Virus record (IMG/VR): IMGVR_UViG_2541047881_000001
Strand: one strand, 5' to 3'
Source of the DNA: a virus
Lineage: Duplodnaviria > Heunggongvirae > Uroviricota > Caudoviricetes
DNA: 10,771 nucleotides
Part shown: positions 1-10,771 of the stretch, piece after piece
Numbering within the stretch: position 1 is the stretch's first letter
Layout: each line of letters begins with the position of its first letter
Program-made: the position numbers and the translations under genes
Notes under the pieces: model-generated
What the model was told of the DNA's origin: nothing
The model's input: only the letters and a program-made list of their open reading frames with translations
Databases searched by the model: none

Positions 1-102
1 ATGGCCATGAATGGCGTTGGATGCCGGGCAACTGCCCGCATTATGGGCGTTGGCCTCAACACGATTTTACGTCACTTAAAAAACTCAGGCCGCAGTCGGT
101 AA
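1..102 (+). CDS. insA: IS1 InsA, C-terminal 33 codons (5' partial at window edge)
   Basis: Frame 1 translates [33 protein letters not shown] then stop (TAA at 100-102), matching the InsA C-terminus as recalled. The A6C slip site sits inside it. Confidence 0.8.
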
Positions 103-524
103 CCTCGCGCATACAACCGGGCAGTGATGTGATTGTCTGCGCTGAAATGGACGAACAGTGGGGCTACGTCGGTGCTAAATCACGTCAGCGCTGGCTGTTT
201 TACGCGTATGACAGGATACGGAGGACAGTTGTGGCGCACGTTTTCGGTGAACGCACTCTGGCCACACTGGAGCGTCTTCTGAGCCTGCTGTCGGCCTTTG
301 AGGTCGTGGTATGGATGACGGATGGCTGGCCGCTGTATGAATCACGCCTGAAGGGAAAGCTGCACGTTATCAGCAAGCGTTACACTCAGCGCATTGAGCG
401 ACATAATCTGAATCTGAGACAACATCTGGCAAGGCTGGGACGGAAGTCACTGTCGTTCTCAAAATCGGTGGAGCTGCATGACAAGGTCATCGGGCATTAT
501 CTGAACATAAAACACTATCAGTAA
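21..524 (+). CDS. insB: IS1 InsB (C-terminal part of the InsAB' transposase), 167 aa
   Basis: ORF track 21..524; the translation [58 protein letters not shown]...HYLNIKHYQ is near-identical to E. coli InsB as recalled. Confidence 0.93.
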
Positions 525-534
525 GTTGGAGTCA

Positions 535-1682
535 CTACCCCTGTTGTCGCTTGTTGTAATCGTTTATTGATGAATTTAGTACGTCCTGAGCAATTTTTTC
601 TGCTTGAAGTACGCCCAATTGCTGCTTTAATCGTGCCAGCCTTTTATTTTGAGCTCCGCCATCTCCAATGCCACCTAACCCGAAAACTCCGGGTCGGGTA
701 TTTTTTTCTATTTCATCAATTTGACGGAGAACATCTGAGATTTTTTGATCAAGGGAGGTCTCACGGCCAATATCCAGCATGGAATCCCATGCCCATTTTG
801 CGGAGTCTGCGACAGCTTTCCATGCAGTCTCAAGATAACCAAGATTTTCTTTAATCTGGTTGGTGCGCTGGATCATTGAGGATGAGTATTCTTCTGTCGC
901 AATGCGGGCGGCCTCCTGCTGGTTCCCTTCATCCTGTAGCGCCTTAATCTGGTTATAAGTCGCAAGTGTCAGAAAATGGTACTGATCATTAAGTTTTGAT
1001 ATGGCACTGACAGGATCCTTTGCAATTTCATTGAAGTCATTAACCAGTTGTTCGGTTGATATTCCTGTTACTTCGCTCGTTTTTACTATCGCTGTCGTCA
1101 CTTGCTCCAGCGAACTGCTCGCTACCTTTCCCGAACGCACAAGCTGATTTAATACTGCCGCCGCAGCACCAGTTGTCGAATCAGCCGCATTCCCGGCACG
1201 TTGAGCTATATCGCCCAATTGCCCGCTGGTTGTCCCCAACTGATTTCCGGTAAGAATAAGAGATTTATTAAATTCGTCCTGCTCCTGAGAGCCTTTATAG
1301 TAAGCCAGTCCTAAGACCCCAACGGCTGCTGCGGCCAGGGTAAAAGGATTAATTAATCCCAGCACATAAGAACCTACACCTTTGATCGCCGGGCCAATCC
1401 CACCGAACATATCTTTTAGCTGGCCGCCCTGCTGCATTAACACCATAAATGGCGACTGACCAGTGGACAACCCAACAACAATATCCGTCATTTGTGCAGG
1501 CAACATGCGCATAGCAAAAGCCGTTTGTTTTGCCGACATTCCGGTTTTGCTTAATTGTGATTGAGTAACCTCAAGCTCACTCCGCATAGCACGAAGTTTT
1601 CCAGAAAGCCCCTCATACATTTCAGGAGAAAGCATCCCCTTAGCTTTTGCTTCATTGAGCTGTTTCTGTTGTTCTACCAGAC
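535..1682 (-). pseudogene. Lambda H-like tail tape measure protein, N-proximal fragment of about 380 codons, truncated by IS629 at the 5' side and by IS1 at the 3' side
   Basis: ORF 535..1635 contains [39 protein letters not shown]...[13 protein letters not shown], which aligns with the N-terminal region of lambda gpH ([39 protein letters not shown]...SDFNKTLVLSGNQ, recalled). The frame stays open upstream of the listed ATG through the IS629 junction at 1682/1683. The stop TAG at 535-537 is supplied by the IS1 terminus. At about 380 codons it is far shorter than a full tape measure (about 850 aa in lambda). Confidence 0.8.
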
Positions 1683-1724
1683 TGAACCGCCCCGGGTTTC
1701 CTGGAGAGTGTTTTATCTGTGAAC

Positions 1725-2615
1725 TCAGGCTGCCAGATCATCGTTTCCGATGGAAGCATAATAAGCTTTTTCTGCTTCTGCCGGAGGAGTATGGCCCAGC
1801 CTTTCCAGCAATCGTCGATTGTTATACCAGTCCACCCACGTGAGTGTGGCCAGTTCCACTTCTGCACGGTTTTTCCAGCTCTTACGGTGTATTACCTCCG
1901 CTTTGTAAAGACCATTGATGCTCTCCGCCATCGCGTTGTCATACGAGTCGCCTGTACTTCCTGTTGATGCCAGTAATCCGGCTTCCTTAAGCCGCTGTGT
2001 GTAGGCCAGCGATACATACTGAGAACCTTTATCACTGTGATGGACCGTGCCGGACGGTCGACGGGCCCATAACGCCTGCTCCAGTGCATCCAGCACGAAT
2101 GTCGTTTCCATGGACGATGAGACCCGCCACCCCACGATGTATCCGGCAAACACATCAATGATGAACGCCACATAGACGAAGCCCCGCCATGTGCTGACGT
2201 AAGTAAAATCAGCCACCCACAGCTGGTCAGGTCGTTCTGCCACGAACTGACGGTTTACGCGGTCGCCTGCGGCAACGGCTTTCCGGCTGATGGTCGTACG
2301 GACCTTTTTACCCCGGAGAACACCGGCAAGTCCCATAACCGCCATGAGGCGCGCCACTGTACATCTGGCCACCCTGATTCCTTCCCGTAACAACTGACGC
2401 CAGACTTTACGCACACCGTACACCTGATGATTTTCATCGTATACGCGCTGTATCTCTCTCTTCAGCCAGTCATCGTGCTGCGCACGGGCACTGCGTTTAT
2501 CCGGATGATGTCGCTGTTGCTGACAATGGTAATACGTTGACGGGGCAATATGCAGTTCGCTGCATACCGGTCCGACCCCGTACTGCTCACGCAGCTTATC
2601 CAGCAGTGGCATCAT
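1725..2615 (-). CDS. IS3-family transposase OrfB (DDE catalytic domain), expressed as OrfAB fusion by -1 frameshift
   Basis: ORF track 296 aa in the -1 frame relative to OrfA, overlapping its end at TGGAAAAAATGATG (A6 run at 2615-2620). It contains integrase-core-like segments ([32 protein letters not shown]). Confidence 0.9.
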
Positions 2616-2938
2616 TTTTTCCAGAGGCGGTCGAACTCCGCCTTCGCAAAATAAGCGGAAGCCTGGCGAAGGATATCGTTACTGCGGCGCAGTTCACGAT
2701 TTTCACGTTCCAGCTCTTTCAGACGCTGACGTTCAGCGCTGGTGAGCCCACCATCACCGCCCCCGGTATCCCGCTCATGCTGGCGAACCCAGACACGCAG
2801 AGTCTCCGGCGTACAGCCAATCTTTGGGGCAATGGAACAAATTGCCGCCCACTGTGAGTCATATTCATCCTGACTTTCCAGAACCATACGGACTGCCCGT
2901 TGACGGACTTCGGGGGAAAAACGAGTATTTTTAGTCAT
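2612..2938 (-). CDS. IS3-family transposase OrfA (HTH DNA-binding, leucine-zipper region)
   Basis: ORF track 108 aa, [60 protein letters not shown]...; ATG at 2938; ends at an A6 slip site. Confidence 0.9.
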
Positions 2939-2992
2939 CCTGTTTACCTCTTTCTCAGGAAGTTTAGTCTCCAGGATTCCCGGGGCGGTTCA

Positions 2993-3133
2993 CTTCATCT
3001 TCGTTAGGCCATTTTGGGAGATAATTTTCCCCCTGCCTGCGCATTTCAAGCGTACCGCCCATCAGTGCGTCGTTAATATCCCACGCCTCCAGCATATCGT
3101 TATAGTCGAGGTTGGGTGTTGATATATCAGCCA
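2993..3133 (-). pseudogene. Phage portal-like protein, N-terminal 47 codons only, truncated by IS629
   Basis: ATG at 3133 lies 4 bp after the terminase large subunit stop. The translation MADISTPNLDYNDMLEAWDINDALMGGTLEMRRQGENYLPKWPNEDE runs straight into the IS629 inverted repeat at 2992. The portal assignment rests only on the conserved position immediately after the large terminase gene. Confidence 0.45.
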
Positions 3134-3136
3134 TAA

Positions 3137-4447
3137 TTAAATCCGAAGTGATGTGACTCTTCCGGTCGGTTTGACAATAGGGAATTGCTTAACGATGAAA
3201 TAACCTCCGGCATCATTCGGGTGATCATTGCCAGATTTTTTATCAGGCTCCCCCTTCTCATCCCAGACCTGTTGCTCCAGAGATTCGGCATATAACGGGC
3301 AACGCTTCACATTAACTTTATAGCGACGCTCACCATTGGCATTGCAGAACATTGCATTCATTGAGTTAACGCGATCTTTTACTGGCGGGTTCGAGCTGTT
3401 CACCACAACGTTAAAACCAGCCTGCTTAAGCTGGGCTATATCCGTCGTACTTGCGTTACTTGATTTTCTGGAATCCCCGGAAGCATCTGGATAAATATAA
3501 ATTTCCCTCACTTTCCGGTAATCATTCCCATCATACAGCCAGAAGCGTTCTTTAATGATGCGGATCATATCCGGCGTATCGTAGGCATTGATGATTTCAG
3601 TTACCGCACATGGAAGCCCCAAACGCAGCACATGGACGATTCCCGCCATCTTTCCAACGTTAAAATCCATCCCAATATAAATCGGCTCCCCTGGCTGCTC
3701 CACTTCTTCGCAATTATTCAGTTTCCGGTCAAACTGATGGTAAACAGTACCACTTGTCAGGTTAGTAAACTGTCCTCGAAGATAGGCTTTAATCAGCTCT
3801 GGAGGGTATGATTCAAGAAGCGAAGGAATGTAATCTGCTGGCAGGTTCTTTTCATTATCGAAAGTAGATGCCTGCACCAGACCATACAGTGAGGCCAGCT
3901 CTGTTTTTTCACGCACGGCTTTAACAAACTGCTCGTAGACAAATTTGAATCCTTCCGGCGTGGTTGTAACGTCAATACCGTTGCGAAGTCCATCAATCTT
4001 ATAACGCATACGTGCAATTATCTTGCGCCACGCCGTTCTGGCTTTTTCCTTCGGCAAAATGTCCAGTTCATCCACCAACGCATTACCAATTTTGAAACCG
4101 ACGATCGTTTGTGGCTTCTCCATCGATCTGCAGATAGTGGTTCCCCGATACTGGCGTCCGTAATAAAAGTGAACCTCTTTATTTCCCTCATTAATTTTTA
4201 CGTTCAATCCCCAGTCAGCAGCAACTTCTTCCACTGTAGGGTAAAAAATATCGCGAATTTGGGGATACGTTGGCGCAAAATATCCCTGATTTATACCTGG
4301 ATGCTCCCAAATCCCCTTGCATATGCCGCCACACCCAACCCATGTTTTGCCCGAGCCAAAACCAGCAATATAGGCTTTAAATTTATGGGGCATTGAAAGA
4401 AATCGCGCCTGAGGCACATTAAGCGTCGGAGAGATCATCTTCATCAC
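3137..4447 (-). CDS. Phage terminase large subunit (ATPase/nuclease)
   Basis: ORF track 436 aa. Walker A-like AGFGSGKTW near the N-terminus and Walker B-like hydrophobic stretch NALVDELD; overlaps the upstream small terminase gene. The listed start at 4447 is GTG; an ATG at 4438 preceded by AAGGAG about 8 nt upstream is the more likely start. Confidence 0.85.
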   Translation of the reverse strand: MMKMISPTLNVPQARFLSMPHKFKAYIAGFGSGKTWVGCGGICKGIWEHPGINQGYFAPTYPQIRDIFYPTVEEVAADWGLNVKINEGNKEVHFYYGRQYRGTTICRSMEKPQTIVGFKIGNALVDELDILPKEKARTAWRKIIARMRYKIDGLRNGIDVTTTPEGFKFVYEQFVKAVREKTELASLYGLVQASTFDNEKNLPADYIPSLLESYPPELIKAYLRGQFTNLTSGTVYHQFDRKLNNCEEVEQPGEPIYIGMDFNVGKMAGIVHVLRLGLPCAVTEIINAYDTPDMIRIIKERFWLYDGNDYRKVREIYIYPDASGDSRKSSNASTTDIAQLKQAGFNVVVNSSNPPVKDRVNSMNAMFCNANGERRYKVNVKRCPLYAESLEQQVWDEKGEPDKKSGNDHPNDAGGYFIVKQFPIVKPTGRVTSLRI

Positions 4448-5513
4448 TCCTTACTCTGGCATCAACCACATTAATATTGATCGCCACAGGCTGGGGATGT
4501 TCATTATCTTCCACCGTTTCGATCTCTTTGCGCAGCTTCTGGTTTTCCATTCTGCGCCGTTCAATTTCCAGTTCCTGTAGCCGTTTATCTGCACATAAAG
4601 CCCCGCCAGCAGAAAACAAACGCAACAATTCACGCCGGGCGGCAGCCTTATCCTCCAGCAGGATCTCAACGCCGAATTTTCCGAATTTTGCCCCTGCATA
4701 TAATTGCCGCGCATCCCCATCAAGCAGAGTGGTATCAGCCATATAAAGCTGTCCCGTTCCCTCACCGCAGCACTTCGGGCAGTCCGGATTGGGTATGGCG
4801 TTATCAACAAAGCCGAGGCCTCCATATTCCGGTTCGGGTTTGCCATCTCTGGAAGCCTGCGCCGCTGCCTTGTCGAATTCTGCTATATCGCGCCACTGGT
4901 AGAGATGATTCTCGCCCCAGCAATAACGGCAGTTAACACGGCGAAATTGTGCAAGCTGATTGGGGTCGGCCAGGACAATAGCCATCAACTGACTCACTAG
5001 TAAATCCAGGTCTGCGGTATAGCGTTTCTGGTACTGATTGCGGAAGTAGCTGATAGCGCGAAAAACCCTGGCATTTCTAAGCATACGACTGGCGTTGCTG
5101 TTAGCTGTCGCACCTTGCCCCTCATAACCGGCTAGTCGGTACGCCTCTGTCGGCTTTTTACCCTGAGCAACAAGCATCGCAAACTTAGCCTGCTGGTCAG
5201 AAATGCCGAATTCATCGGGACAGAACGAAAATTCCTCCGCGTCGCCCTCATTCAGGCCCGCATCGAATACTGGCTTTTTTTCCTGAGATTTTTCGTTCCG
5301 CTTTTGTGCAGTCTGCGCAGATTTTTTCTGCGCACTTTTTTGCGCAGTTTTGCACATTTCTGTCTGCGCATTTTTCGGAGTTTTTTTGATGTAACGACGG
5401 GCTGTTGCGTAATTCAGTCCCCTTGCTTCACACCATGCCACCGGAGATATACCGGAGCGGGTGTATTCAGCAATATACTCCTGCTGCAACGCCCCCCAGT
5501 CCGGTCTGCTCAT
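4419..5513 (-). CDS. Phage terminase small subunit (long form with extra N-terminal HTH, K/A/Q-rich repeat linker and Cys cluster)
   Basis: ORF track 364 aa, immediately upstream of and overlapping the large subunit. The segment SDQQAKFAMLVAQGKKPTEAYRLAGYEGQGATANSNASRMLRNARV resembles the small-terminase DNA-binding motif (Q..F..EY....T.AY..AGY.......AS.LL.N..V). The N-terminal 50 aa look like an additional HTH. Confidence 0.65.
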   Translation of the reverse strand: MSRPDWGALQQEYIAEYTRSGISPVAWCEARGLNYATARRYIKKTPKNAQTEMCKTAQKSAQKKSAQTAQKRNEKSQEKKPVFDAGLNEGDAEEFSFCPDEFGISDQQAKFAMLVAQGKKPTEAYRLAGYEGQGATANSNASRMLRNARVFRAISYFRNQYQKRYTADLDLLVSQLMAIVLADPNQLAQFRRVNCRYCWGENHLYQWRDIAEFDKAAAQASRDGKPEPEYGGLGFVDNAIPNPDCPKCCGEGTGQLYMADTTLLDGDARQLYAGAKFGKFGVEILLEDKAAARRELLRLFSAGGALCADKRLQELEIERRRMENQKLRKEIETVEDNEHPQPVAININVVDARVRSDEDDLSDA

Positions 5514-5516
5514 CAG

Positions 5517-5768
5517 TTAGTCCTGATTTTTATCCACCCTGAGTAGTTCGCGCAGAGCAAAGGCATCCCCTTTTCTGGCAAGCTTAAACAATGCCGCTCG
5601 TAACTCGGCTTCACCTTTCGCTCTGCCCTTACGGATGGCCGCATAAAAATCTGTCATTGCTTCCCGATTTTCTTTCAGTCGGTTCAGATCAACATCCAGA
5701 ACGTCAGCGATTTGTTGTGCAGTCATCCGGCACGCTGCCAGAGACTCGACTTTCGAATACGGAATCAT
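5517..5768 (-). CDS. Small hypothetical phage protein (83 aa), possibly DNA-binding, translationally coupled to the small terminase gene
   Basis: ATG at 5768 is preceded by GGGGGTGA at 4-5 nt. Its stop lies 3 bp before the small terminase ATG. It is a basic, helical-looking sequence (TAQQIADVLDVDLNRL...AIRKGRAKGEAELRAALFKLARKGD). No confident family assignment. Confidence 0.5.
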   Translation of the reverse strand: MIPYSKVESLAACRMTAQQIADVLDVDLNRLKENREAMTDFYAAIRKGRAKGEAELRAALFKLARKGDAFALRELLRVDKNQD

Positions 5769-6657
5769 TTGTCACCCCCATTGATATGCAGGGTGTCTTC
5801 TTCCTGTATTTTTCGTGAAGGATTTTTACTGCAGCGTTGTTCCAGGTGACCTGATGGTGAATGCGTTTATGGCTGGCACCCATCAGTGAGATTTTTACGC
5901 ACGACGGCGCATACATGACGGAGTAAAAACTTTTAACGTAGGTTGCGGAATCCAGATACAGCTCGGTCATTCCGCCGCTGTTTTTCTGCGTCTGTTTCTG
6001 CCCTAACTGGACAGCACCGATCGTCATAAACAATTCACCACAGCGACCGAGATTCGTGTACGTATTCACATCCTCGTTAATGCGCCCCATGAATGAGAAC
6101 GGTCGATCAACCGAACAGATAAAGCTGTTCATTGCCTTGCGTTTCACCCACGAAGCATGGCCGCCATTGTCACCAAGAAAATCCCCGCCCTGCGACATAG
6201 CGATGGAAAGAGCAGGTATTGATTCGTAGTACGCCAGCATTTCAGAAAGGATCGCATCCAGTTTCCTTATCGGAAAATAGGCCTGGTCATAGTTGCGATC
6301 CACCCGAAACTGGAACTCGTGATAATCATCATCGAGCTGAATGAAGTATTTACACCCGACCAGTTTTGCCAGGTCGAAACAGGCATTACGGGCGTAAAAA
6401 ATTGAGCGGCGGTCACAGAAATTATCGGCTTCGTCAAAACGACTGGCGATATCGGCTTTGGAAAACACCAGCACCTGTTCACCAAATTCAGCCATGTACT
6501 GATGCCGTGTCTTATCTTCATCATCAACCACGATAAAAATTTTCCCGGTATAGCCAGCACGACGCAACGTCCGGTAAGTCAGAACTTTGTCCGGTCGCCC
6601 GTGAGTCAGAATAAAGGCGCAAAAATCATCACGCATATTCCTCCTCCTCACCACCAT
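5704..6657 (-). CDS. Hypothetical phage protein with GT-A-like acidic (DxD-type) motifs; candidate nucleotide-sugar or other nucleotide-dependent transferase
   Basis: ORF track 317 aa. The likely true start is the ATG at 6636, with GAGGAGGAGGAA directly upstream, overlapping the ParB-like gene stop as ATGCGTGA. Motifs FILTHGRPDKV, IFIVVDDED and YFIQLDDDYHEF (hydrophobic strand followed by an acidic cluster) resemble GT-A fold glycosyltransferases. No transmembrane segment. The function is inference only. Confidence 0.55.
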   Translation of the reverse strand: MVVRRRNMRDDFCAFILTHGRPDKVLTYRTLRRAGYTGKIFIVVDDEDKTRHQYMAEFGEQVLVFSKADIASRFDEADNFCDRRSIFYARNACFDLAKLVGCKYFIQLDDDYHEFQFRVDRNYDQAYFPIRKLDAILSEMLAYYESIPALSIAMSQGGDFLGDNGGHASWVKRKAMNSFICSVDRPFSFMGRINEDVNTYTNLGRCGELFMTIGAVQLGQKQTQKNSGGMTELYLDSATYVKSFYSVMYAPSCVKISLMGASHKRIHHQVTWNNAAVKILHEKYRKKTPCISMGVTNDSVFESRVSGSVPDDCTTNR

Positions 6658-7420
6658 GCATGATCTCCACCATGCGCTGCGTCATCCGGACAAATCCATT
6701 TTCAATAGCCTGCTGATAATCAATGATCACCAGCGCCGACTCCTCGAAAAAACACTGAATTTCAGAGGGGGCGTGAGCGTAATAGTCCGCAATTCTGCTG
6801 AAATTAAACACCGTGTGACGTTCTGCCGCACACAGGAGGAATTTCTCAATATCAGGCTCAAGGGACGCCGAACGTATCCGGCTGATCAGCTCCTGAGTTT
6901 TCGTATCGTCGTACAGTTCACTGATATCCGGTTTACCGCCCGACGGCTCATAAACAGGCGTATCAATTTTCGTCGTATACGGCTCCTCCTCATTTCCTGT
7001 ACCGGGCAAAACATCCGTCAACAGTTCATCAATTTCTGTCGGGATGAAGCCTGTCAGGGAGACATCAAAATCAGCATTGATTAGGTCCGACAGCTCCATC
7101 CGCAACAGATCTTCATCCCAGCCAGCATTCATCGGCAGGCGATTATCTGCCAGGCGGTACGCCTTTTTCTGCTCATCCGTCAGGCCAGACAGAACAATGA
7201 CCGGAACAGAATCCATTTTGAGCATTTCAGCCGCCATAACACGACCGTGACCCGCAATAATTTCGCCCTTTTCGTCAATCAGCACCGGATTAGTCCAGCC
7301 GAATTGCTTAATACTTTCTACCAGTTGTGCCACCTGCTCAGTACTGTGCGTCCTGGCGTTGTGCGCATACGGTGACAATTCTTGTAATGGGCGATAGACT
7401 ATCTTTAATTTCTCGCTCAT
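6629..7420 (-). CDS. ParB/Srx (ParB N-terminal nuclease-like) domain protein with acidic C-terminal tail
   Basis: ORF track 263 aa. The N-terminal 100 aa (IVYRPLQELSPYAHNARTHSTEQVAQLVESIKQFGWTNPVLIDEKGEIIAGHGRVMAAEM...LTDEQKKAYRLADNR) fit the ParB/sulfiredoxin fold pattern, including a GxxRxxA box (GHGRVMAA, compare GERRxRAA in ParB). The C-terminus is highly acidic (GGEEEEYA). Confidence 0.8.
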   Translation of the reverse strand: MSEKLKIVYRPLQELSPYAHNARTHSTEQVAQLVESIKQFGWTNPVLIDEKGEIIAGHGRVMAAEMLKMDSVPVIVLSGLTDEQKKAYRLADNRLPMNAGWDEDLLRMELSDLINADFDVSLTGFIPTEIDELLTDVLPGTGNEEEPYTTKIDTPVYEPSGGKPDISELYDDTKTQELISRIRSASLEPDIEKFLLCAAERHTVFNFSRIADYYAHAPSEIQCFFEESALVIIDYQQAIENGFVRMTQRMVEIMHGGEEEEYA

Positions 7421-7435
7421 ACAGCCTTGCTTTAT

Positions 7436-7470
7436 GAATAAAACGCACCCCAGCAGCCAGTGCTACTGGG
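7436..7470 (-). terminator. Candidate rho-independent terminator downstream of trkG
   Basis: On the minus strand: CCCCAGTAG-CACTGG-CTGCTGGGG (9-bp stem with one G-U pair, 6-nt loop) followed by TGCGTTTTATTCAT. Located between the trkG stop (7558) and the ParB-like start (7420). Confidence 0.4.
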
Positions 7471-7557
7471 GACGGAGGGGTTGCTGGTAAAGTTAGGTAT
7501 TGGATCAATGAGTGAGTCAACATAATATTAAACTCACAATTATAAATCAGCCATATA

Positions 7558-9016
7558 TTAGGAGCGCCAAAAAAAACCTGAAAACAATATAATAACAGGA
7601 TAAATTTCAAGGCGACCAAGAATCATAGCTATGCACATTAAACATTTTGCAATGTCATTAAGCACTCCGAATGACGATGCAGTAGCCCCAAAACCTAATC
7701 CCATATTATTAATACATGCAGCCACTGTTGCAAATGATGTAAGAAAATCATATCCCATACCATTTAACACCAGTATAAAAAACACCGTGAAGAGAGTATA
7801 AAGAAAAAAGAAACTCCATACAGACCTCATTACACGATCTGTAACTATCTTCCCTCCTACATTTACACTCAACAACGCTCTGGGATGAGAAAGCTGATTT
7901 ATCTCGTGTTTGCTTTGTTTGAAAAGTATAAGAAATCGAAGTGACTTAATTCCACCACAAGTTGAACCTATACATCCCCCAAAGAAACTTGACAACAGCA
8001 AAAACACTATCGTGTGCGTGGGCCAACTTGCATAATCCTGCGTAGCTAAACCATTATCAGTGAGCATGGAGCTGGCAAGAAAAAACGAATGAATAAAACT
8101 TCCATGCAAGTCATACATACCTATATGCCAGACCTGGAAAGAGGTAACAATGATCACCCCTAAGGCTATTAACAGAAAGAAACGAAGTTCAATATCTCTG
8201 ATTAAAGGTTTTATCGTTTTCCTGCTAATAACAATATACCAAAGAGTGAAGTTGAAAGCCGATAGCAGGGAAAAAGAACCAGCCACCAGCTCAACCAAAT
8301 AGTTATTAAAATATCCGATACTCTCGCTATGAGTTGAGAAACCACCAAGCGAAACTGTGGAAATCCCGTGACAAATAGCATCAAACAAAGGCATTCCTGC
8401 AAGTCTATAACAGACAATACAAGCAATACCTAATAAAGAATAAGTTATCCACAGTGTCCGTGACGTATCGGCCAGGCGGGGAGTGAGTTTGTCATCCTTA
8501 AATGGCCCCGGCATTTCTGACTGATAAAGCTTTGCACCACCAATACCCAATAATGGCAATACAGCAACCGCCAGAACAATAACTCCTAAACCACCTATAA
8601 AATTTAACTGTGACCGATAGTACAAATATGCCCGAGGTAATGAACTAACATCATCAATTACAGTTGCTCCTGTTGTTGTTATTCCAGAAACCCCTTCAAA
8701 CAGAGCATCAATGAACGTTAAATTAAGTTCTGAGTCAATCCATAAAGGGAATGCACTAATAACAGAAAACAAAATCCAAAACATTACAATTATAATAAAC
8801 CCATCACGGGTACGTAATTGAATGCCAGATTTCTTAGTTGTATACCACGCTCCGCCACCAATGCAAAAAAAATATAACGAAAGTTATAAAGAAAACGAAC
8901 AGGCTTTTTTCTTTATAAAACAATGCTACAACCATTGGTGGCAACATTGAAAGACTATAGAGCCAAACCAGGAACCCACACATATGAGTAACAACTCTTA
9001 CATGAGATGTATTCAT
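7558..9016 (-). pseudogene. trkG: TrkG/TrkH-family K+ uptake protein, disrupted by a +1 frameshift in a homopolymer run
   Basis: Two overlapping ORFs in different frames (8834..9034 and 7558..8784) together read MNTSHVRVVTHMCGFLVWLYSLSMLPPMVVALFYKEKSLFVFFITFVIFF / CIGGGAWYTTKKSGIQLRTRDGFIIIVMFWILFSV...GGLGVIV...GFSTH.... The frame switch falls in the A8 run at 8865-8872 (T8 on the coding strand). Removing one base gives one 485-codon ORF from the ATG at 9016, the length recalled for Rac-prophage TrkG. TrkH-type signatures are present (GITTTGATV, GGLGVIV, LGGFSTHS). Confidence 0.85.
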
Positions 9017-9034
9017 ATCTAAATATTCTTTCAA

Positions 9035-9153
9035 TTATAACCACCTTGCTGCAATATTATGATTATACTGTATAAAATTTAACTCCTCTTAGATCTTACT
9101 TCACTGTTCCTTATGAAACAATCATCAAAATGAATCATATTGTAGTTAAGATT
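9035..9153 (-). promoter_or_regulatory. AT-rich upstream region of trkG with candidate sigma70 -10 elements
   Basis: Intergenic region between the Rz stop and the trkG start. It is very AT-rich and has TATAAT hexamers on the minus strand at about 9044-9049 and 9063-9068. No convincing -35 was found, so this is a low-confidence call. Confidence 0.3.
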
Positions 9154-9618
9154 TTACTTTAAACACTGCTCGGTTATGTATTGCTGAGCACCTTCAAGTT
9201 GGGCCTGCATCATTACCAGTCGTTCCCGGAGGGTGAAATAATCCCGTTCAGCGGTGTCTGCCAGTCGGGGGGAGGCTGCATTATCCACGCCGGAGGCGGT
9301 GGTGGCTTCACGCACTGACTGACAGACTGCTTTGATGTGCAACCGACGACGACCAGCGGCAACATCATCACGCAGAACATCATTTTCAGCTTTCGCATCA
9401 GCTAACTCCTTCGTGTATTTTGCATCGAGCGCAGCAACATCACGCTGACGCATCTGCATGTCAGTAATGGTGGCGTTCGCCTTCTCCAGTTCACTGGCCT
9501 TGTTATCGCGCTGTTCTTTGTAGGCGATTGCATTATCACGGTAATGATTAACAGCCCATGACAGGCAGACGATGATGCAGATAACCAGAGCGGAGATAAT
9601 CGCGGTTACCCTGCTCAT
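9154..9618 (-). CDS. Rz: Rz i-spanin (inner-membrane spanin subunit)
   Basis: From the ATG at 9618 the product is [31 protein letters not shown]...[45 protein letters not shown]..., closely matching lambda Rz as recalled. The start overlaps the endolysin stop as ATGA. The ORF-track start at 9630 is a GTG 12 nt upstream. Confidence 0.9.
9213..9398 (-). CDS. Rz1: Rz1 o-spanin lipoprotein, nested in the +1 frame of Rz
   Basis: ORF track 61 aa, [52 protein letters not shown].... It has a lipobox (VVGC) and a proline-rich mature region, entirely embedded in Rz, and matches lambda Rz1 as recalled. Confidence 0.88.
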
Positions 9619-10112
9619 TGTTGCCCCCACAAACAGACCTCACGCTCAATCTCACGACGAGTCATCAGGCCTTTCCATTGCTTACCGCCAGCGTATGCCC
9701 AGCGACGTAGCTGGTCACATGCGCCCTTGATATCGCCCTGGTTTATTTTGCGAAGAAGAGTAGATGTTCTGAAATTGCCTGCGCCCACGTTATAGACGAA
9801 CGAGTAAAGAGCGCCGCGCGTTGTTTCCGGTATATCGACTTTGATGTACGGGTTAATTTGTCTGGCTACCGTGGCAAGGTCTTTATTCAGGAGGGCTTTG
9901 CATTCTGCTTCGGTATACGTTTTACCGGGAATGATGTCTTTTCCTGTATGCCCGTGACATACAGTCCATACGCCAACGATATCTTTGTATGGTATGTAGC
10001 TGACACCTTCCAGACCATCGTTACCACTTGGGCCAGTGATTAACACTGATGCTATAGCAATTGCTCCGCCACCAATAGCAGCAGCAACGGCTTTTCGTAA
10101 TGATGGAGGCAT
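9615..10112 (-). CDS. R: SAR endolysin (phage 21 R-type lysozyme with N-terminal signal-anchor-release domain)
   Basis: ORF track 165 aa. The N-terminal Gly/Ala-rich weakly hydrophobic segment [20 protein letters not shown] is typical of a SAR domain. A lysozyme catalytic region follows ([24 protein letters not shown]). Near-identical to R21 as recalled. Confidence 0.92.
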
Positions 10113-10327
10113 TATTCACCTCTCGCAGCCTTGCGCTTATCTTCTTTAATCTTGAAATAAAGGTTTGTCAGGTACGTCAGCAGGCCAAATACCAAGCTAC
10201 CCAGCACACCTATTGCTGCCCACTGTGAGGGCGTGACTTTATCGAGCAGCTGTAAAAACCAGTAGCCAGCACTGCCTGCGGAGGTGCCGTAGGCAATGCC
10301 CGTTGTTAACTTATCCATGGATTTCAT
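10112..10327 (-). CDS. S: Class II holin / pinholin (phage 21 S-type) with dual-start motif
   Basis: ORF track 71 aa, [71 protein letters not shown]. It has two transmembrane segments and a charged C-terminus, and a Met1-Lys-Ser-Met4 dual start. SD GGAGGTGAGG lies upstream. Its stop overlaps the endolysin ATG by 1 nt (TAATG). Confidence 0.9.
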
Positions 10328-10420
10328 AGCCTCACCTCCGCAAATAACGGATGGTGTACACGGTTCGGAACGAAGAGGAAAGGTATAGAAGTTACATTAG
10401 CGTAAGGCTTGAACATCTAT

Positions 10421-10454
10421 TCAAAAAGAAAAACGCCGCGATTATTCTGGCGTA
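10421..10454 (-). terminator. Candidate tR'-like intrinsic terminator of the late leader upstream of the holin
   Basis: On the minus strand: ACGCC-AGAATAATCGC-GGCGT followed by TTTTTCTTTTT. The 5-bp stem is short, but the loop and T-tract resemble lambda tR' (GGCCTGCTGGTAATCGCAGGCCTTTTTATTT, recalled). Located about 95-125 bp upstream of the holin ATG. Confidence 0.35.
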
Positions 10455-10544
10455 GCTGAAAGCATCATACAATTATCAAATACGAAAATTACAAAATCAT
10501 TAAAACGCATCACGTTACATCATGTCTTTTTCTAAAAAAAATCT

Positions 10545-10771
10545 GGTAATGACTCCAACTTATTGATAGTGTTTTATGTTCAGATAATGCCCGATGACTT
10601 TGTCATGCAGCTCCACCGATTTTGAGAACGACAGCGACTTCCGTCCCAGCCGTGCCAGGTGCTGCCTCAGATTCAGGTTATGCCGCTCAATTCGCTGCGT
10701 ATATCGCTTGCTGATTACGTGCAGCTTTCCCTTCAGGCGGGATTCATACAGCGGCCAGCCATCCGTCATCC
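10545..10771 (-). mobile_element. IS1: IS1 insertion sequence, partial (right end and terminal inverted repeat; remainder beyond the window), inverted relative to the copy at 1-539
   Basis: GGTAATGACTCCAACTTATTGATAGTGTTTTATGTTCAGATAATGCCCGATGAC... starting at 10545 is the reverse complement of the IS1 right end. It differs from the first copy at terminal positions (CAATAAGTTGGAGTCATTACC here, CAGTAAGTTGGAGTCACTACC in the first copy). Confidence 0.93.
10560..10771 (-). CDS. insB: IS1 InsB, C-terminal part (5' partial; continues beyond the window end)
   Basis: ORF track 10560..10769 gives [69 protein letters not shown], identical to the C-terminus of the InsB at 21..524. Confidence 0.9.

Follow-up and report, generated by a model that had tools for sequence, protein, structure and literature searches.

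A probable IS629-associated deletion of head and tail-shaft genes in a decaying lambdoid prophage of Escherichia coli

The stretch of DNA analysed here (the window, 10,771 nt in full) is 100% identical to part of scaffold KE701683.1 in assembly GCA_000460355.1, from the clinical isolate E. coli UMEA 3151-1. It forms one gap-free contig whose ends lie at N runs within two IS1 copies, and these bracket the window in inverted orientation. The prophage remnant to which it belongs is located between ybhC and ybhB/bioA, carries int and xis genes of the lambda type, and has the att core GCTTTTTTATACTAA at attR; we assign it to att-lambda because of this combination of location, integration genes and core. 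Integration at the Rac locus (the ttcA/ompN side) was not borne out; the late region is of the Rac type, but the remnant is a prophage of att-lambda and distinct from Rac. On the minus strand, intact small and large terminase genes are followed by the beginning of a portal-like gene, a complete insertion sequence and an internal piece of a tape measure protein (TMP) gene (Table 1).

Table 1. Positions of the features in the window
Feature	Position	Strand	Remarks
Part of second IS1	1-539		About 91-93% identical to the other IS1 copy
Internal TMP fragment	540-1682	minus	nt 674-1816 of the 1,077-aa gene, from the second nt of codon 225 to codon 605
GAC flank beside IRR	1680-1682	plus	Differs from the opposite flank
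Complete element, assigned as IS629 isoform (IS3 family)	1683-2992	minus	1,310 bp, with inverted repeats
Right terminal inverted repeat (IRR) of IS629	1683-1707		25 bp
IS629 orfB	1725-2615	minus	296 aa; rve DDE integrase core, rve/HTH_21 matches
ALIL pseudoknot	2541-2657	minus	Programmed -1 frameshift signal of IS629; Rfam RF01497
IS629 orfA	2612-2938	minus	108 aa; HTH_Tnp_1
Left terminal inverted repeat (IRL) of IS629	2968-2992		25 bp
CTT flank beside IRL	2993-2995	plus	Differs from the opposite flank
Portal gene 5' stump	2993-3134	minus	Codons 1-47 plus 1 nt
Terminase large subunit (terL)	3137-4447	minus	Intact; Terminase_6N/6C
Terminase small subunit (terS)	4419-5513	minus	Intact
ynaK, glycosyltransferase-family gene and small ORF	5517-7420	minus	Between trkG and terS
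trkG	7558-9034	minus	Frameshifted
End of IS1B copy	10545-10771		xis-side junction common to strain 2017.15.02CC

The element between the two gene fragments has imperfect terminal inverted repeats that begin TGAACCGCCCCGGG and are 92% complementary over 25 bp. Its two reading frames overlap, and the overlap is spanned by a strong match to the ALIL pseudoknot model (121.5 bits, E 7.5e-32). In general ISfinder practice, insertion sequences count as isoforms at a nucleotide identity of at least 95%. The element aligns without gaps over all 1,310 bp, at 97.6% identity, to an IS629/IS1203 copy of E. coli O157:H7 that carries the RefSeq label ‘IS1203 family’ and is flanked by a normal AAC duplication, and many plasmids carry copies that are 100% identical to it. 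Taking the O157:H7 copy as the accepted standard, we consider the assignment as an IS629 isoform justified, because of both this identity and the identical plasmid copies. Judged by its sequence, the element looks functional. A fusion of orfB with the neighboring TMP fragment was considered and rejected, the two being in different frames.

The open reading frame (ORF) that follows the large terminase gene begins at position 3134 and meets the end of IS629 at 2993 after 142 nt, so that it runs for the 47 codons described in the initial annotation plus one nucleotide. It reads nine further codons into the left inverted repeat to make a 56-aa hybrid ORF (2964-3134), and the ‘hypothetical protein’ of that length annotated as G919_00857 is this portal stump fused to IS sequence. 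We read the 47 codons as the N-terminus of a portal protein encoded directly after the large terminase because intact relatives extend the same start to a portal of 468 aa, with the first 47 residues identical in E. coli NCTC9699 (L004) and 2017.15.02CC (L012). The intact protein matches phrog_145 (E 5e-165) and is of the DUF4055 type (PF13264, E 1.4e-44), and it also matches portal proteins in the PDB (E 3e-17). The possibility that the short ORF is a complete small gene was rejected, since it is the start of the 468-aa portal in E. coli APEC 102026 (L003), in NCTC9699, in 2017.15.02CC and in 10 phage records. A hot spot for breaks at codon 47 was also rejected: portal N-terminal fragments of 44-57 aa show no peak in counts at 47, the protein cluster admits only fragments of roughly that length, and most of the fragments continue as a normal portal.

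Beyond the opposite end of IS629, the TMP frame stays open between position 1680 and a stop at 535-537. The fragment, annotated as G919_00854, is internal to its gene, having been truncated at its 5' end by IS629 and at its 3' end by IS1. It matches PF06791 (TMP_2, E 1.9e-84) and phrog_24 (E 7e-162), and has 35% identity to residues 57-317 of lambda gpH. The initial annotation had the frame already open about a dozen residues from the start of gpH by alignment. This holds when lambda gpH is the reference, as the alignment puts the start of the fragment at about gpH residue 13 (an offset of 12), but not for the real gene. The full TMP of this phage type has 1,077 aa, including a 224-residue N-terminal extension relative to gpH, and the break lies after codon 224 plus one nucleotide, so the fragment starts in codon 225. 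The extension (codons 1-224, L012 11119-11791) contains three similar motifs, IDPVGAAIDTVG, IDPLAAALRNLE and LDPVGTAFNRLV; the break in the window and the IS629 insertion of NCTC9699 are both in or beside the third.

Strain 2017.15.02CC, a complete genome with the same prophage at att-lambda, was the best comparator. Positions 540-1682 of the window correspond to L012 9976-11118 with 1143/1143 bases identical, while positions 2993-10544 correspond to L012 20001-27551, a single mismatch and an additional A being the only differences in 7.5 kb. IS629 is thus located exactly at a joint whose flanks are collinear with the comparator at 100% and 99.97% identity, and the intervening 8,882 bp (L012 11119-20000) are missing at the element. 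In the record NZ_AP027818.1 this segment occupies positions 3,216,521-3,225,402. Measured against APEC 102026 and NCTC9699, both of which have the full head/tail-shaft module, the missing length is 8,884 bp. The 8,882 bp extend from portal codons 48-468 through TMP codons 1-224 and also hold the minor head, scaffold, capsid, connector, terminator, tail tube and chaperone genes. In APEC 102026 and NCTC9699 the genes are arranged in the order terS, terL, 468-aa DUF4055 portal, minor head protein, DUF6651 scaffold, P22-type capsid, five small connector genes, tail terminator, tail tube, YdaY chaperone, a 66-aa ORF and the 1,077-aa TMP, and PHROGs calls identify portal, head morphogenesis, scaffold, major head, tail terminator, tail protein and tail assembly chaperone among them. 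The region from terL to TMP is likewise contiguous in ten GenBank phage records at identities of at least 99%. A natural order with TMP next to terminase was rejected, as it occurs in none of these ten records nor in APEC 102026, NCTC9699 or 2017.15.02CC. The initial annotation had estimated that 8-10 kb of head and tail-shaft genes were lost and had proposed aligning the region to intact prophages of related strains; the alignment returned collinear flanks with 8,882 bp between them, containing the genes that had been named. Its central claim, that the joining of portal to TMP at IS629 implies an IS-mediated deletion, is supported, and neither of the observations that it listed as contrary, an intact relative with a free-standing small gene and TMP next to terminase, or identical repeats at the true ends of the element, was made.

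Insertion of IS629 produces duplications of 3-4 bp (PMC3271280), which are to be expected of a simple insertion. In the window, the GAC and CTT flanks differ, so there is no target-site duplication, and the 4-bp flanks differ as well (AGAC versus CTTC); re-inspection therefore confirmed what the initial annotation had said of the 3-bp flanks. The boundaries of the element are exact, since the match to intact relatives ends at 1682 and starts again at 2993, and they are validated by the proper 3-bp duplications seen at other IS629 insertions (GAC in NCTC9699, ATG in APEC 102026 and AAC in O157). A duplication hidden by misplaced IS629 ends was rejected, with no direct repeat present at the true boundaries. 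The insertions in NCTC9699 and APEC 102026 hit the same TMP gene, the former 42 bp from the break in the window. Whether a duplication is present depends on how the insertion took place and not on IS629 itself, and its absence is the signature of the rearrangement. Among IS629 sites in O157, matching flanks were reported at only 21 of 47 and the duplication was missing at the other 26, and 62% of the O157 copies are located in prophages (PMC3271280). The IS629 copy in terL of strain ET82 (L002 9015-10330) is also without a duplication (TAG versus CAT) and brings three extra bases (TAG) that are missing from the uninterrupted gene. In four of the five IS629 copies that were compared, CA occupies positions -5/-4 beside IRR: CAGAC in the window (1678-1682), CAGAC in L004 (13181-13185), CAATG in L003 (12127-12131) and CAAAC in L013 (1611-1615). 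This CA-NNN pattern next to IRR, noted post hoc in a tiny sample, may reflect a target preference.

Both IS629 junctions and the IS1 junction are real, because they were recovered in independent Logan assemblies. The portal::IS629 junction is present in the assemblies of SRR958586, a read set of UMEA 3151-1, and SRR7174191 (L006 and L007), and a 1,201-bp contig found in 6 samples (L011) is made up of 28 nt of IS629, the 1,143-bp TMP fragment and an IS1 end. Each IS629 junction was seen in about six Logan samples. The contigs stop 28 nt into each end of the element, which indicates that IS629 is multicopy in the strain, and a single draft contig from short reads provides the only link from one junction to the other across this multicopy element. 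We screened 5,426 complete E. coli genomes and found the empty portal site in 747 and the empty TMP site in 1,066, and none of the genomes had IS629 at either site. Searches with 32-mers across both junctions gave no matches in genome_contigs and metagenome_contigs (four scans). The initial annotation had suggested looking for other genomes with IS629 and a proper 3-bp duplication at either junction, and there were none among the 5,426 genomes and the contig collections. Apparent cases of IS629 beside TMP or terminase turned out to be at other sites, namely terL in ET82, the neighboring TMP position in NCTC9699 and elsewhere in TMP in APEC 102026. We also looked up the reciprocal proteins that two simple insertions would have left (TMP residues 1-225 followed by LNRPGNPGD, and 10 residues followed by portal residues 48-468). 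Both were absent by exact lookup, but so was the 391-aa Logan junction protein that served as positive control, and these absences therefore carry no weight.

Taken as a whole, the locus very probably records a genuine deletion, associated with IS629, in the decaying lambdoid prophage at att-lambda of E. coli UMEA 3151-1. A simple insertion is excluded because the duplication is missing, which fits the view of the initial annotation that the structure arose by an adjacent deletion or by recombination between two copies. IS629 would first have inserted at one of two sites, in the portal gene or in TMP, and the CAGAC flank beside IRR, which resembles those of bona fide IS629 insertions, hints that the TMP site may have been the original one. 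The DNA beyond the other side of the element would then have been lost. Our slight preference, held tentatively, is for a one-step adjacent deletion catalysed by the transposase and possibly assisted by IEE, in which an aberrant strand transfer would have joined one IS629 end to a remote target. We lean toward it because it calls for a smaller number of events in a stretch that has barely diverged, and because transposases of the IS3 family, above all when IEE is present, make documented IS-adjacent deletions, which range from a few nucleotides to more than 40 kb (PMC9943667; PMC8860574; 10.1101/2023.06.07.543989).

Almost as plausible is a route by which two IS629 copies in the same orientation, one in the portal gene with a CTT duplication and one in TMP with a GAC duplication, underwent RecA-dependent recombination. 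The two copies would have arrived by separate insertions or by a local hop. Recombination between these 1.3-kb direct repeats would remove 8.9 kb together with one IS copy, and it would yield the exact structure seen: a single IS between collinear flanks that carry halves of two different duplications. IS3-family elements that transpose by copy-out-paste-in retain the donor copy, so that a second copy nearby is to be expected, and IS629 has entered this TMP gene repeatedly and independently in APEC 102026 and NCTC9699. The two-copy route, however, needs three events within a span that has almost not diverged from the intact relative, neither single insertion was found in the 5,426 complete genomes or the two large contig collections, and the roughly six samples with one junction are apparently matched by six with the other.

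It is improbable that the joint is an artefact of assembly, with two simple IS629 insertions around an intact module, or unlinked IS629 copies, threaded through one IS. Such an error would be in keeping with a short-read draft as the source, with the multicopy state of IS629 and the break of Logan contigs just inside both of its ends, and with the two adjacent IS1 copies having been left unassembled with N runs. Against it, the contig is gap-free through IS629, and an independent assembly shows the TMP fragment as a 1,143-bp island between IS629 and IS1. A collapsed assembly is further made unlikely by three observations: the flanks are still ordered and oriented as in the ancestor, both junctions occur in equal numbers of samples, as would fit a single linked structure, and the same prophage, which was decaying anyway, has two other IS-bounded deletions. 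The risk of a mis-join at IS629 is in this way reduced but not removed. We give the least credence of all to a deletion that came first by another route, such as illegitimate recombination, with IS629 entering the joint later, for although the same module has been lost by IS-free deletions in EcPF15 (L001) and K-12 Rac, a duplication of 3-4 bp would be expected from a simple insertion and is missing here, and both flanks end exactly at IS629 with no joint sequence shared.

The IS629-associated deletion is one of three IS-bounded deletions (5.1, 8.9 and 13.3 kb) by which the prophage differs from its near-identical intact relative, and which have reduced it from 38.7 kb to about 13.6 kb. The IS1 at positions 1-539 bounds a 13,261-bp deletion with one end at TMP codon 605 and the other 516 bp before the attR core, and at IS1B an adjacent deletion of 5,052 bp has removed the nin/Q region relative to 2017.15.02CC. 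The locus documents the stepwise decay of an att-lambda prophage through these events. The prophage of UMEA 3151-1 is defective: it can build neither heads nor tails and so forms no particles, and the portal and TMP stumps are pseudogenes. Between the tail-fibre genes and attR, 2017.15.02CC carries a diguanylate cyclase gene as cargo (L015 10239-11570), which has been lost in UMEA 3151-1. This is ordinary, well-known IS-mediated prophage decay; the reading is useful for annotation, and neither the mechanism nor the kind of element is new.

Prophage deletions at IS629 and IS3 elements have been described in O157 (PMC9943667, citing Ooka 2009 and Kusumoto 2011; PMC3271280; PMC8860574). They share with the window the type of element, the prophage setting, the lack of a target duplication and an IS at the joint of a deletion on the kilobase scale. 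They differ in that the host of the window, UMEA 3151-1, is non-O157, and its joint is absent from all complete genomes searched. The IS1B deletion of the remnant resembles the classical IS1 deletions of the gal region, as these are cited in PMC8860574, with one junction ancestral and the other joined to a point 5,052 bp away. IS1 belongs to a different family from IS629 and has a different transposition chemistry, and no ancestral counterpart of either IS629 junction was found in the genomes searched.

Another close parallel is the cryptic prophage Rac of E. coli K-12 (trkG-ynaK-ydaY-ynaA/tmpR). It has the same late-gene family as the window, with lysis genes, trkG, a ParB-like ynaK and a lambda-type TMP, and it has likewise lost the head/tail-shaft module with a truncated tape measure gene left behind. 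The K-12 Rac deletion, however, runs from ynaK to ydaY with no IS at the joint, and Rac is integrated at ttcA/ompN, whereas the remnant studied here is at att-lambda with a lambda-type int/xis. Unlike K-12 Rac, the remnant keeps both terminase genes, a gene for a TET-associated glycosyltransferase (TAGT) family protein and a full-length ynaK. Independent losses of the same module are seen in EcPF15 (IS-free), PSS-13 (with IS1 between terL and TMP), ET82 (IS1) and K-12 Rac (IS-free). In EcPF15, the deletion has left portal codon ~442 joined to a point midway in the tape measure gene (L001 6091-6097). In each of these losses from trkG-carrying Rac-type prophages, the block of lysis genes, trkG, ParB/TAGT genes and terminase was retained. 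It is doubtful that this recurrence reflects selection, in which the virion would be disarmed and a useful block kept, with the locus and its relative forming a before-and-after pair. If that reading were true, the locus and the intact relative would be a natural pair for a one-step adjacent deletion by an IS3-family element.

Within the retained block, the segment between trkG and the small terminase gene encodes a full-length ParB-like YnaK (263 aa), of which K-12 Rac retains only an 87-aa stump, together with the TAGT family protein, which matches PF20691 (E 3.7e-35) and phrog_842; the third gene is a small ORF. These three genes may form a DNA-modification module. The trkG gene of the window is frameshifted at position 8865 by an extra A, with a run of eight A residues where 2017.15.02CC has seven. 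In Logan contig L007 (SRR7174191), the portal::IS629 junction is present together with an intact trkG of 491 aa, so the frameshift is younger than the junction.
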